From an uncultured Methanosarcinales archaeon (GTDB lineage Archaea; Nanobdellota; Nanobdellia; Woesearchaeales; DSVV01): 64,000 nucleotides of DNA. The notes below the pieces were generated by a model. The model saw only the letters and a program-made list of their open reading frames with translations. It ran no database searches and was not told where the DNA came from. Position 1 is the first letter of the stretch; every line of letters starts with the position of its first letter. Shown here in pieces: positions 39,709-43,821 of the stretch. A program made the translations under genes and the position numbers. The stretch lies in contig CAZQHZ010000006.1 in assembly GCA_964593285.1 (NCBI GenBank), positions 1 through 64,000 of the forward strand, written 5' to 3'.

Positions 39709-41031
39709 ATGTTAAAATACCTATTAAAAACCTTTAAAGGTGGAATTTATCCAAAAGAAAAAAAGATTGGAAAAGACATACAATTACAAAAATTAAAAAT
39801 ACCACCAAAAATAACAATTCCACTAAAACAACACATTGGAAAAGAATGTAAACCAACTGTAAAAATAAATGATTCTATAAAAAAATATCAACTAATTGCA
39901 GCACTTAATGATAATGAACTTCACTCTAATATTCATTCTTCAACATCTGGAATTGTAACAAATATAACACAAAAAGAATTTCCAATATATGGCACAATTA
40001 ACTGTATAGAAATTAAAACAGATGGAAAAGATGAAAGTCTCAAATTAAATAAAATTAACCAAAAGAATTTAACATTAACTAAATTTATAAAAATAATAAA
40101 GGATGCAGGAATAGTTGGTCTTGGTGGTGCAGGATTTCCAACTCATAAAAAATTTGATACTAAAGATAAAAAAATTGAAACCATAATTATAAATGGATGT
40201 GAATGTGAACCCTTCATTTGCAGTGATCACAGAATTATGTTAGAATATTCAAATGAACTAATAAAATGCTTAAAATTATTAATAAAAATAACAAAAGCAA
40301 AAAATACAATCATTGGAATAGAAGATAATAAAACAAATGCAATTAACAAATTAAATAAAATAATTACTAAAGAAAATTTAAAAAATAAAATAAAAATCAA
40401 AAAATTAAAAACAAAATATCCACAAGGAGCAGAAAAAATGCTCATTTATTCTACAACAAAAAAAATAATACTAGAAAACGAGTTACCAATCAATAAAGGA
40501 ATTATTATCATAAATGTTTCAACACTAAAAGCCATTTATGATGCAATTTTTGAATCTAAACCTTTAATTGAAAGAGTAGTTAGCATAACAGGGGATATAG
40601 ATAATCCAAAAAATTATATTGTAAAAATTGGAACACCAATTGATTATTTAATTAAACAAAGTAATAATAAAATTAATAACCAACAGATCTTAATGGGTGG
40701 GCCAATGATGGGTATTTTAACAAATGAAATTAATCCAATAATTAAATTAAATAATGGGATTACCATTTTAAATAAAAGAGAAACAGAAAATGAAGAAAAA
40801 TGTATGAAATGTGGAAAATGTATTACTGTATGTCCTTTAAATTTAGTTCCATCAAAAATTGCTTTATTTTCAAAAAAAGAAATGTATGAAAATGCAAAAA
40901 ATCTTTTTGCATTAAATTGCTTTGAATGTGGATCTTGTACTTATATATGCCCATCAAAAATTCATTTACTAAAACATATAAAATCTGCAAAAAATGAAAT
41001 TTTAAAAAAAAACAAAATAACTAACAAATAA
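39709..41031 (+). CDS. rnfC: Rnf complex subunit C
   Basis: PLKQHIG, GLGGAGFPT, NGCECEP, YPQGAEK, GGPMMG and two CxxCxxCxxxCP motifs. Confidence 0.96.
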   Translation: MLKYLLKTFKGGIYPKEKKIGKDIQLQKLKIPPKITIPLKQHIGKECKPTVKINDSIKKYQLIAALNDNELHSNIHSSTSGIVTNITQKEFPIYGTINCIEIKTDGKDESLKLNKINQKNLTLTKFIKIIKDAGIVGLGGAGFPTHKKFDTKDKKIETIIINGCECEPFICSDHRIMLEYSNELIKCLKLLIKITKAKNTIIGIEDNKTNAINKLNKIITKENLKNKIKIKKLKTKYPQGAEKMLIYSTTKKIILENELPINKGIIIINVSTLKAIYDAIFESKPLIERVVSITGDIDNPKNYIVKIGTPIDYLIKQSNNKINNQQILMGGPMMGILTNEINPIIKLNNGITILNKRETENEEKCMKCGKCITVCPLNLVPSKIALFSKKEMYENAKNLFALNCFECGSCTYICPSKIHLLKHIKSAKNEILKKNKITNK

Positions 41032-41034
41032 AAA

Positions 41035-42033
41035 ATGGAAAAAGAAAATAATTTACAATCACCATTTATTAGATCAAAATACACAAAGCAAAAAATAATG
41101 CTTTATGTTTTTTTATCGTTAATTCCATCAAGCTTATTTGGAATTTATATTTTTGGAAAAAACGCAGCTTTAATTATAATAATTAGTTTAATTACTGCAA
41201 TTATTACAGATAATTTAATGCAAAAAATAACTAATGAAAAAATTGGAAAAGTAAATTATTCATCACTTTTAACAGGATTGATTTTTGCATTAATAATACC
41301 TCCAACTGTCCCATTATGGATTCCTGTAATAGGTGTAATAATATCGATTATTTTAGGTAAATACATTTTTGGAATTGCAAGCAACATATTCAACCCTGCA
41401 TTAGTTGGAAGAGTTTTTTTAGTAATATCATTTCCCGTATTTATGACTGCATTTATTGCACCAATAAATACATTAGATTCAAATAATTTATCAATAACAA
41501 ATGAAATTGATACAGTAACTTCTGCAACACCTCTATCGTATACAAAACAATTGAGCAATGAAGAGCTAATGAACAAATATTCAATTAAAGACCTTTTTTT
41601 TGGTTTTAGTGAAGGTTGTATTGGAGAAACATCTGCATTTTTATTAATTATTGCAGGAATCATATTAATTTTCTTAAAAATAATTGATTGGAGAATACCT
41701 GTTTTTTATATAGGTTCATTTACTTTTTTTTTATTAATATTTAATGAAAATATTTTATTTCATTTATTTAGTGGTGGATTAATATTTGGTGCAATTTTTA
41801 TGGCAACAGATTATGTAACTAGCCCCATAACTAAAAATGGAAAAATTATATTTGCAATATCTTTAGGATTACTAACTTTTTTATTTAGGATATATTCATC
41901 AATACCCGAAGGGGTTATGTATTCGATATTATTTATGAATTTATTAGTCCCTTTAATTGAAAAATACACAATGCCAAAACCTTTTGGATATGTAAAATCA
42001 AAATCAAAAAAATGGAAGTCAAAAATAAATTAA
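41035..42033 (+). CDS. rnfD: Rnf complex subunit D
   Basis: NIFNPALVGR, flavinylation site TSATPL, GCIGETS, FMATDYVTSP. Confidence 0.96.
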   Translation: MEKENNLQSPFIRSKYTKQKIMLYVFLSLIPSSLFGIYIFGKNAALIIIISLITAIITDNLMQKITNEKIGKVNYSSLLTGLIFALIIPPTVPLWIPVIGVIISIILGKYIFGIASNIFNPALVGRVFLVISFPVFMTAFIAPINTLDSNNLSITNEIDTVTSATPLSYTKQLSNEELMNKYSIKDLFFGFSEGCIGETSAFLLIIAGIILIFLKIIDWRIPVFYIGSFTFFLLIFNENILFHLFSGGLIFGAIFMATDYVTSPITKNGKIIFAISLGLLTFLFRIYSSIPEGVMYSILFMNLLVPLIEKYTMPKPFGYVKSKSKKWKSKIN

Positions 42034-42566
42034 AAAATATAATGGTATTAATAATTATATTAAGTATATCTTTACTATTACTACATAATATCAATAAATT
42101 AACCAACCCAATTATTCAAGAAAAAAAAGATGAAATATTCAAAGAAGAATTATTATCAATATTTGATTCATTTGACTCTTTTAATGAAAAAATAATTCAC
42201 GATAAAAACAATAATAAAAAAAATACTATATTTGAAATAATTAAAAACAATGAAATAATAGGCTATGCTATCACTGAATATAAATATGGTTATCAATCAG
42301 AAATAGGTGTTTTAGTTGGTTTTAACAAAAATAAAACAATAAAAAAAATAAAAATAATTGAGCAAATGGAAACTCCTGGAATTGGCTCAAAGATTTTAGA
42401 TAAAAATTTTTTAAACCAGTTTTCAAACAAAAAAAAAGAAGAAATTAAATTAAAAAAAAATGATGGTAAAATAGATGCAGTAACTTCTGCAACAATTTCA
42501 TCAGAAGCTGTTGTAAATTCAGTAAAAGAAGCATTCAATGATTACTTAAGTTATATAAATGAATAA
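42012..42566 (+). CDS. rnfG: Rnf complex subunit G
   Basis: N-terminal TM, ETPGIG, FMN site DAVTSATISS. Confidence 0.94.
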   Translation: MEVKNKLKNIMVLIIILSISLLLLHNINKLTNPIIQEKKDEIFKEELLSIFDSFDSFNEKIIHDKNNNKKNTIFEIIKNNEIIGYAITEYKYGYQSEIGVLVGFNKNKTIKKIKIIEQMETPGIGSKILDKNFLNQFSNKKKEEIKLKKNDGKIDAVTSATISSEAVVNSVKEAFNDYLSYINE

Positions 42567-42590
42567 TAATAATAATAATAATAATAATAA
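42562..42590 (+). repeat. (AAT)9, read as nine tandem TAA stops after rnfG
   Basis: Read directly. Confidence 0.95.
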
Positions 42591-42610
42591 AATAAATGAA
42601 AAATTAAAAA

Positions 42611-43219
42611 ATGTTAAATAAAATAAAAAAACTAATAAATGAAATAATTAAAAAAAACCCAGTATTTGTTTTAATGCTTGGTCTGTGTCCAACACTTGCG
42701 GTAACAACATCTATTGAAAATGCTATTGGAATGGGTATTTCAACTTTTTTTGTTTTATTAATGTCTGGAAGCATTATCTCAATAATAAAAAAATTTATTC
42801 CACCAAATATAAGAATACCATGCATTATTTTAATAATTGCAACATTTGTAACAATTATTAGTTTATTACTCCAAGCATTTTTTCCAATAATATTTGAAAA
42901 TCTTGGAATTTATATTCCATTAATAGTTGTTAATTGCATCGTACTTGGAAGAGCATTATCTATATCATATAGATCAAATTTAAAAAAATCATTAGAAGAT
43001 AGTTTTATCATAGGAACTGGTTTTTTAATAGCACTAATATTAATTGGTTTTATTAGAGAAATAATTGGAAATGGAAAAATAGTTTTTTTAAATAAAACAT
43101 TAATAAATATACCTTTTGATGGATTATTTATAATGATACTTCCTGCTGGTGCATTATTAACAATTGGTTTTTTACTTGCATTTTTTAATTATTTAAAATT
43201 TAGAAAAACAAAAATATAA
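42611..43219 (+). CDS. rnfE: Rnf complex subunit E
   Basis: LGLCPTLAVT, RIP, IPLIVVNC, REIIG. Confidence 0.96.
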   Translation: MLNKIKKLINEIIKKNPVFVLMLGLCPTLAVTTSIENAIGMGISTFFVLLMSGSIISIIKKFIPPNIRIPCIILIIATFVTIISLLLQAFFPIIFENLGIYIPLIVVNCIVLGRALSISYRSNLKKSLEDSFIIGTGFLIALILIGFIREIIGNGKIVFLNKTLINIPFDGLFIMILPAGALLTIGFLLAFFNYLKFRKTKI

Positions 43220-43245
43220 AAAAATAAAAATTAATAATATTAAAA

Positions 43246-43821
43246 ATGGATAATATATACACTTTACTAATAAGTTCAATTTTTGTAAATAATGTAGTAT
43301 TAATTATGTTTCTTGGAATATGTCCTTTCATTGGTGTTTCAAAAAAAACATCTCCTGCATTTTATATGGGCATTGCTGTAACATTAATTATGGTTTGTAG
43401 CTCATTTTTAACTTGGATAATCTATAAAAAAATACTTGAAAAACTAAATCTTGAATACATGTGGATTGTTATATTTATATTTATAATTGCATTAATGGTT
43501 CAAGGGATTGAAATTTTTATTAAAAAAAAAAGCATTTCATTATATCAAAAATTAGGAATATATCTTCCACTAATAACTACAAACTGTGCAATACTTGGGA
43601 TTGCTTTTTTAAATATCACAAATGAATTTTCACTACTTTATGCAGTAATAAACGGATTTGGTGCAGGGATTGGTTTTATGATTGCATTAATTATGATGTC
43701 ATCAATTAGAGAAAAATTAGAACTTGGAAATGTTCCAGAAATATTTAAAGGAGTCCCTATTGCATTTATAACTGCTGCTATAATGTCATTAGCATTTTTT
43801 GGATTTAAAGCCTTTCTTTAA
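43246..43821 (+). CDS. rnfA: Rnf complex subunit A
   Basis: FLGICPFIGVSKK, LGIYLPLITTNCAILG, IREKL. Confidence 0.96.
   Translation: MDNIYTLLISSIFVNNVVLIMFLGICPFIGVSKKTSPAFYMGIAVTLIMVCSSFLTWIIYKKILEKLNLEYMWIVIFIFIIALMVQGIEIFIKKKSISLYQKLGIYLPLITTNCAILGIAFLNITNEFSLLYAVINGFGAGIGFMIALIMMSSIREKLELGNVPEIFKGVPIAFITAAIMSLAFFGFKAFL

Follow-up and report, generated by a model that had tools for sequence, protein, structure and literature searches.

An rnfCDGEA operon without detectable rnfB in a Woesearchaeota-type archaeon: a candidate five-subunit Rnf complex

Introduction

Can an Rnf complex operate without RnfB? Structural models treat the tethered RnfB cluster as the trigger of Na+ pumping and RnfB as essential. 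The question is raised by an rnfCDGEA operon located in a 64,000-nucleotide stretch of archaeal DNA (the window; assembly GCA_964593285.1, contig CAZQHZ010000006.1, positions 1 to 64,000), where an earlier note made from the sequence alone had found an unrelated gene in the slot after rnfA. The organism belongs to the DPANN archaea, as that note had supposed, and is of the Woesearchaeota type, its nearest named homologues being labelled 'Candidatus Woesearchaeota', 'Nanoarchaeia' and 'Nanobdellota'. The accompanying view that Rnf would be a novelty in such a lineage did not survive, because Woesearchaeota operons have been published and rnfA was detected in 40 of the 401 genomes of the order (a tally that includes the unpublished genomes G158, G233 and G235). 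Huang et al. (2021, PMC8421398) described rnfCDGEAB in four metagenome-assembled genomes of Woesearchaeota subgroup J, probably derived from bacteria, and PMC11606122 described an expressed complete rnf set in the same group. In a sample of the phylum, rnfA was present in 12 of 401 genomes, all of them within the order (the unpublished genomes again counted), and neither this sample nor searches around genomes G068 and G078 yielded a further genome with rnfA. What would be new is a natural five-subunit form lacking RnfB. No such Rnf was described in the literature searched, which consisted mostly of papers outside subscription and left the supplements of PMC8421398 and PMC11606122 outside; only a hypothetical precursor of Na+-NQR was found there.

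Operon Integrity and the Search for rnfB

The five co-oriented genes rnfCDGEA were confirmed, with each product passing its TIGRFAM cut-off (Table 1), scoring far lower against the Nqr profiles and retaining its cofactor ligands, and no stop codon or frameshift was found across the 4.1 kb of the operon. The HIT gene reported in the slot after rnfA was likewise confirmed, separated from rnfA by a short spacer. The assembly is 95.9% complete with 0.12% contamination and comprises 38 contigs with 32 internal gaps. Continuity was checked over 42611-44700 only, a segment that takes in rnfE, rnfA and part of the HIT gene. A single contig from X1, which may be the source run, covers it without a break; the portion 43507-44198 is also covered, with 4 differences, by a contig of 692 bases from run X3 of a second study. 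Runs X2 and X4 contributed short pieces only. A chimeric assembly was rejected for the rnfE-rnfA-HIT stretch because contigs bridge the junction; the GC content is also even throughout the window, and contamination is low.

The absence of rnfB was found to extend from the operon to the whole assembly. The earlier note had named a canonical rnfB elsewhere as the finding that would speak against a B-less complex, and the genome-wide profile search found none: the RnfB profile TIGR01944 gave 11 matches, none over the cut-off and all corresponding to generic ferredoxin domains, and PF04060, which represents the membrane-near RnfB cluster, gave no match in the genome, either as part of a full RnfB or as a short one-cluster form. 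A tblastn search with the RnfB proteins of 10 relatives returned no N-terminal match (best E 0.57, no Cys motif), and a hidden Markov model (HMM) built from the first 100 residues of the relatives' RnfB and run over six frames returned no credible one (best E 0.047, no Cys motif). NqrF is not present in the genome either, because the only Fer2 domain belongs to the N-terminus of HydA, and among 1306 open reading frames scanned none encodes an anchored Fe-S protein able to replace RnfB. Since RnfB was searched for and not found, the system is not classed as a canonical six-subunit Rnf; at best, as far as its sequence indicates, it would be a variant of Rnf that works like the six-subunit complex.

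RnfB Forms in Related Genomes and in Bacteria

Gene order was surveyed in 43 rnf-bearing genomes, including the present one (G000) and excluding G158, G233 and G235; one operon ends before rnfA, which left 42 assessable. A full RnfB (224-325 aa, one of them split over two contigs) was found in 31 operons, and a one-cluster RnfB consisting of an anchor and a single cluster (81-115 aa, with one doubled version of 181 aa) in a further 8. The remaining three genomes, G000, G021 and G068, showed no RnfB after rnfA and no PF04060 match anywhere in the genome; G021 is 89% and G068 87% complete. In the 39 B-bearing relatives, the distance from rnfA to rnfB is at most about 1.5 kb, or rnfB sits at the matching contig edge, and genes inserted between the two occur. 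Judged from these sequences, the order appears to hold a series from full RnfB through one-cluster RnfB to none, of which the five-subunit form is the end.

An HdrA-MvhD protein was considered as a stand-in for RnfB and rejected, its presence not tracking RnfB loss: an MvhD-bearing HdrA is encoded in 5 of the 43 Rnf genomes of the order, 4 of which carry a full RnfB, and in neither G021 nor G068.

Several relatives displayed unusual arrangements. The RnfB of G323 (L071:2863-3408) has a duplicated membrane-near Fe-S domain and is devoid of ferredoxin domains. Split operons were observed in G054 (L042) and G177 (L069), with rnfG-E-A and a short rnfB on one contig and rnfD on another. Eroded rnfD-E-A genes accompanied by a short rnfB were found in G341 (L073:2205-4983) and G244 (L074:5089-7382), genomes in which RnfG is missing, the FMN motif of RnfD is lost and the proportion of conserved columns kept is 0.59-0.74.

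For a wider comparison, 80 mostly bacterial loci were drawn from 2 of the 64 parts of the collection. A full RnfB follows rnfA in 65 of them, a short RnfB in 5 and none in 10; these ten comprise six loci of Bacteroidota, in which rnfB leads the operon (PMC4014512), two at a contig edge, one with rnfB elsewhere and one with none over the cut-off. In the bacterial genome G422, rnfB is located apart from rnfA. In G421 (L093; completeness not given), also bacterial, the gene after rnfG-E-A is unrelated, and no RnfB scored over the cut-off.

Cofactor and Gating Residues

Ligands in RnfA, RnfD and RnfE were located by alignment to the structures of A. woodii (9ERI) and C. tetanomorphum (7ZC6), which are the best PDB matches (RnfA E 2e-57, RnfD 2e-73, RnfE 9e-50), and residue roles were taken from bioRxiv 10.1101/2024.06.21.599731. 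The operon shares the order C-D-G-E-A and all named cofactor ligands with these RnfCDGEAB complexes and differs from them in the missing RnfB, in a Leu at RnfE E115 and in a Tyr at RnfA position 40. RnfC carries two CxxCxxCxxxC motifs and keeps its FMN/NAD site, with 6 of 6 motif patterns present. RnfD has a TSAT motif with FMN-Thr165 and the riboflavin residues N120 and D259, whose A. woodii counterparts are T156 (covalent FMN), N123 and D249, and RnfG has a TSAT motif with FMN Thr161 and retains 21/21 conserved columns. The four cysteines for the membrane [2Fe-2S] cluster are kept (RnfE Cys26 and Cys109, RnfA Cys26 and Cys114), as are RnfA K33, R155 and E159, whose A. woodii counterparts point towards the cluster of RnfB.

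The gating residues checked, in A. woodii numbering, were RnfE R67, E115, L103 and V106 and RnfA Q85, E88, Y105, T110, T111 and N112. All are retained (the R67 counterpart here is R68) except RnfE E115, the Na+ ion-pair residue of A. woodii, which corresponds to Leu116; Leu also occurs in 6 relatives with full RnfB and is a clade trait. In A. woodii, E115A grew like the wild type and E115K did not (bioRxiv 10.1101/2024.06.21.599731). Tyr40 of RnfA is found in 0 of 103 homologues from RnfB-bearing operons (88 Gly, 15 Ser) and is shared with P0036, an RnfA 86% identical to ours. It stands at the position of RnfA G39 in 9ERI/7ZC6, and in RnfE, Ile133 takes the position of G132. The RnfB anchor helix bundles with helices of RnfA, RnfE and RnfG (PMC9588780), and our guess is that Tyr40 may reflect the loss of this packing. 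Position 47 of RnfA was discarded as a residue specific to B-less complexes, being non-Phe in 3/3 of these and also in 10/103 B-bearing homologues, mostly kin.

Evolutionary History of the Operon

G000 grouped as sister to genus g11 (support 1.0) in a tree built from two housekeeping proteins, and the Rnf trees, obtained with FastTree and with a quick IQ-TREE run on 16 rows chosen from 40, placed it next to the same genus (0.94; Shimodaira-Hasegawa-like approximate likelihood ratio test, SH-aLRT, 85, inside a clade of support 99 that also holds G057/G247). All g11 genomes carry a full RnfB, so the loss or relocation of rnfB took place on the branch leading to G000. The block was also rearranged and apbE moved: 23 of 30 relatives have apbE no more than 2.5 kb upstream of rnfC (it is adjacent in G021 too), and here it is unlinked. 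A single origin of the three B-less operons was ruled out: one clade containing them was rejected by the approximately unbiased (AU) test (p 0.0025, 16 rows, with G000 and G021 flagged for composition), while a clade of G021 and G068 was not (AU p 0.40, 16 rows). These tests point to RnfB-less operons in at least two lineages. A wider tree, unrooted and weakly supported, suggests several bacterial sources for the Rnf of the order.

The earlier note had also regarded the divergent tRNA-Leu upstream of rnfC as compatible with horizontal acquisition. The tRNA is not a mark of insertion, because the operon lies off its 5' end and no second copy of the tRNA end occurs within the window. A recent transfer at this site was rejected on these grounds together with the agreement of the Rnf and housekeeping placements and the third-position GC content (GC3) of the five rnf genes, which falls between the 10th and 94th percentile of 852 genes, inside the range of the genome.

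Selection on the Rnf Genes

Of the 27 differences between RnfA and P0036, a single one affects any of the 64 conserved columns (Fisher p 1.3e-4), a pattern that shows RnfA to be under probable purifying selection. Among strains, 3 of 4 differences in rnfE and rnfA were synonymous, too few to decide alone. The count of conserved Rnf columns lost was 21/282 in G000, compared with 6-12 of about 290 in the sisters G010, G018 and G022, which belong to the reference set and are therefore favoured in this comparison; conserved housekeeping columns lost in G000 were 12/583. The corresponding Rnf counts were 38/280 in G021 and 13/282, within the normal range, in G068. Metagenome scans for the genomic context of P0036 gave 0 loci in one case and 2 distant loci in another. 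Among the best 120 of 3812 matches, no RnfB lay on a contig as long as the one carrying P0036 (36,951 bases), in a test that retrieved no more than 3 of the 12 RnfA contigs used as controls.

Energy Metabolism of the Genome

An intact ApbE gene with a full profile match (238.7 bits) was found at C31:1097-2110, not linked to rnf. A flavinylation scan with D-x(1,2)-[ST]-[GS]-A-[TS] matched RnfD and RnfG and, doubtfully, a single site in a giant protein of 6581 aa, and PF04205 matched RnfG alone in the genome; ApbE thus appears to have been kept with RnfD and RnfG as its sole targets, the doubtful site aside. The genome encodes one small soluble 2[4Fe-4S] ferredoxin, that located in the window (Table 1), together with PorCDAB, a pyruvate:ferredoxin oxidoreductase (from C4:67412 on), and a HydABC-type [FeFe] hydrogenase (C19:7530-11647). 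HppA, present in G021 and G068, was not found in this genome, nor was any Mrp-, Ech- or Mbh-type subunit, and no primary pump other than Rnf was found. Subunit c of the ATP synthase (7082-7315) was identified by Pfam and PDB matches, and the remaining subunits are those we presume from their translations. At a further locus, C2:85833-90224, MvhD forms a fusion with an HdrA-like flavoprotein; genes for [NiFe] hydrogenase subunits of the MvhG and MvhA type come next, and HdrB/C are not encoded alongside.

Discussion

We propose, tentatively and with somewhat less than even confidence, that Rnf without RnfB still works here as a ferredoxin:NAD+ ion pump fed by soluble ferredoxin. In this mechanism, 2-oxoacid oxidation would deliver reduced soluble ferredoxin, which would take the place of RnfB, bind directly in the groove on the cytoplasmic side of RnfA/RnfE and reduce the membrane [2Fe-2S] cluster. 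Electrons would then pass from RnfA/E through RnfG, RnfD and RnfC to NAD+ while Na+ (or H+) is moved outward, the gradient would be used by the A-type ATP synthase, and HydABC would reoxidise NADH together with ferredoxin, forming H2. In favour of a working complex without RnfB we count the failure to find RnfB or a stand-in, the retained ligands (among them RnfA K33, R155 and E159), the intact apbE with its few targets, the lack of any other primary pump among those sought, the purifying signal on RnfA, the mostly synonymous strain differences and the occurrence of B-less operons in at least two lineages. Direct feeding by ferredoxin is plausible because of two precedents. The Rnf of T. maritima, with a predicted one-cluster RnfB of 10.56 kDa, accepts clostridial ferredoxin and pumps Na+ (PMC7414866), and the RnfA/E dimer opens to the cytoplasm, where its membrane cluster is reduced by a mobile Fe-S domain of RnfB or by the [2Fe-2S] domain of the unrelated NqrF (PMC12174285).

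A number of observations weigh against this proposal. Conserved columns appear to have been lost faster in G000 than in its sisters, and the selection signal on RnfA may predate the loss of rnfB. A. woodii variants without the B8 cluster of RnfB, in which the protein itself was still made, showed no growth and no activity, and the inward state is proposed to arise when the B8 domain inserts (bioRxiv 10.1101/2024.06.21.599731). At least a one-cluster RnfB is kept in 39 of the 42 assessable operons. Of the two other B-less cases, G068 is weak because an integrase and a contig end follow rnfA, and G021 is both incomplete and more eroded. Finally, the Na+ ion-pair residue of RnfE is replaced by Leu, though the relatives with full RnfB that share this change temper the objection. 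The missing subunit is real, yet it is based on one strong and two weaker genomes.

The accelerated erosion of conserved columns in G000 and G021 and the essential role of B8 in A. woodii would also suit a relic, in which rnfB was deleted near the tip of this lineage and the complex is dead, its five genes being intact only because the loss is so recent. In that case the ATP synthase, running in reverse, would energise the membrane, and HydABC would balance redox. Such a course would be in keeping with the absence of a real rnfA from 21 of the 27 further genomes in the family (one weak match with stops not counted) and with the clear decay of Rnf in G244 and G341. We nevertheless consider it unlikely, although still a serious contender, since the operon is free of stops and frameshifts and of any rnfB remnant, RnfA carries the purifying signal, the few strain differences point the same way without deciding the matter, apbE is intact and RnfC has kept the cofactor sites whose loss PMC4014512 expects once rnfB is gone. 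Another explanation starts from the gaps of the assembly: rnfB may have moved, like apbE, into unassembled DNA, leaving an ordinary six-subunit Rnf. The 38 contigs, the rearranged block, the distant rnfB of the bacterial genome G422 and the insertions seen between rnfA and rnfB all make room for this, but the high completeness and low contamination, the close linkage of rnfB and rnfA in the 39 B-bearing relatives and, if the guess about packing is right, Tyr40 make it the least probable of the explanations considered.

The complex could also have another partner or another use. A larger Fe-S enzyme (PorD, HydB/HydA, HdrA-MvhD and a DUF362 protein are candidates) might dock on RnfA/E, or the C-D-G arm might hand electrons from NADH to an acceptor outside the cell, for example a host. 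Fe-S proteins of this kind are encoded in the genome, and a ferredoxin-like domain of a larger complex has been allowed as donor (PMC9588780). HdrA-MvhD, however, does not follow the loss of RnfB in the order, no further flavinylated outer proteins were found, and a role confined to export needs no RnfA/E, yet these subunits are conserved; we therefore regard this explanation as improbable.

Returning to direct feeding by ferredoxin, we advance as possible, and short of probable, the wider claim that a five-subunit Rnf pump, in which free ferredoxin reduces the [2Fe-2S] cluster of RnfA/E, arose at least twice in Woesearchaeota, ends the series of full, one-cluster and no RnfB, and represents a living analogue of the RnfB-less intermediate of Na+-NQR. 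Compared with subgroup J (PMC8421398, PMC11606122), the operon belongs to the same lineage, has the same gene order and is likewise accompanied in its genome by an [FeFe] hydrogenase and a V/A-type ATP synthase; the operons published there have six genes, apbE is usually divergent upstream rather than unlinked, and HppA was not found here. In T. maritima, the polyferredoxin part of RnfB is dispensable and ferredoxin is still accepted (PMC7414866), a type recurring in the eight operons with a one-cluster RnfB of our survey, whereas here the anchor helix and the last cluster are also gone. The five-gene core rnfCDGEA/nqrABCDE without RnfB is shared with Na+-NQR and its hypothetical RnfB-less precursor (PMC4014512, PMC12174285). 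In contrast to Na+-NQR, no NqrF was found, RnfC retains the FMN/NAD and Fe-S motifs lost by NqrA, and the subunits score as Rnf; the operon is an analogue of the proposed intermediate and not an ancestor. If the proposal is true, a natural pump without RnfB would show what the minimal Rnf really is, would allow the part that the donor plays in gating to be told apart from its tether, and would supply a real protein set for the RnfB-less step so far only postulated in the evolution of Na+-NQR.

Other Features of the Window

Table 1. Position and description of the rnf genes and other features in the window.
Feature	Position	Strand	Description
rnfC	39709-41031	+	440 aa; NAD/FMN subunit with two [4Fe-4S] motifs; TIGR01945, 446.9 bits (cut-off 245.95)
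rnfD	41035-42033	+	332 aa; membrane subunit; TIGRFAM, 295.5 bits (cut-off 207.05)
rnfG	42012-42566	+	184 aa; anchored outer FMN shuttle; TIGRFAM, 111.9 bits (cut-off 102)
rnfE	42611-43219	+	202 aa; TIGRFAM, 226.1 bits (cut-off 213.4)
rnfA	43246-43821	+	191 aa; TIGRFAM, 233.6 bits (cut-off 229.3)
AT-rich spacer	43822-43917		96 bases; site of rnfB in relatives; no rnfB remnant
Two-domain HIT gene	43918-45063	+	Unrelated neighbour after rnfA
tRNA-Leu(TAA)	39463-39550	-	Divergent neighbour upstream of rnfC; not an integration mark
Soluble 2[4Fe-4S] ferredoxin	63779-63973, or 60 aa from ATG at 63961	-	Candidate direct donor
A/V-type ATP synthase operon	483-9632	-	Likely user of the ion gradient

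Within the ATP synthase operon, a beta-carbonic anhydrase gene (1127-1795) is situated between subunits B and D, and subunit c has a Glu in helix 1 where Thermus has a Gln, with PETL in helix 2. Three HIT genes flank the rnf block (37664-38925 and 43918-45063), each with an Asn-rich low-complexity tail. A 125-aa Lys/Ala/Val repeat protein encoded at 34905-35282 gave no Pfam match and is one that we take to resemble histone H1-like proteins.

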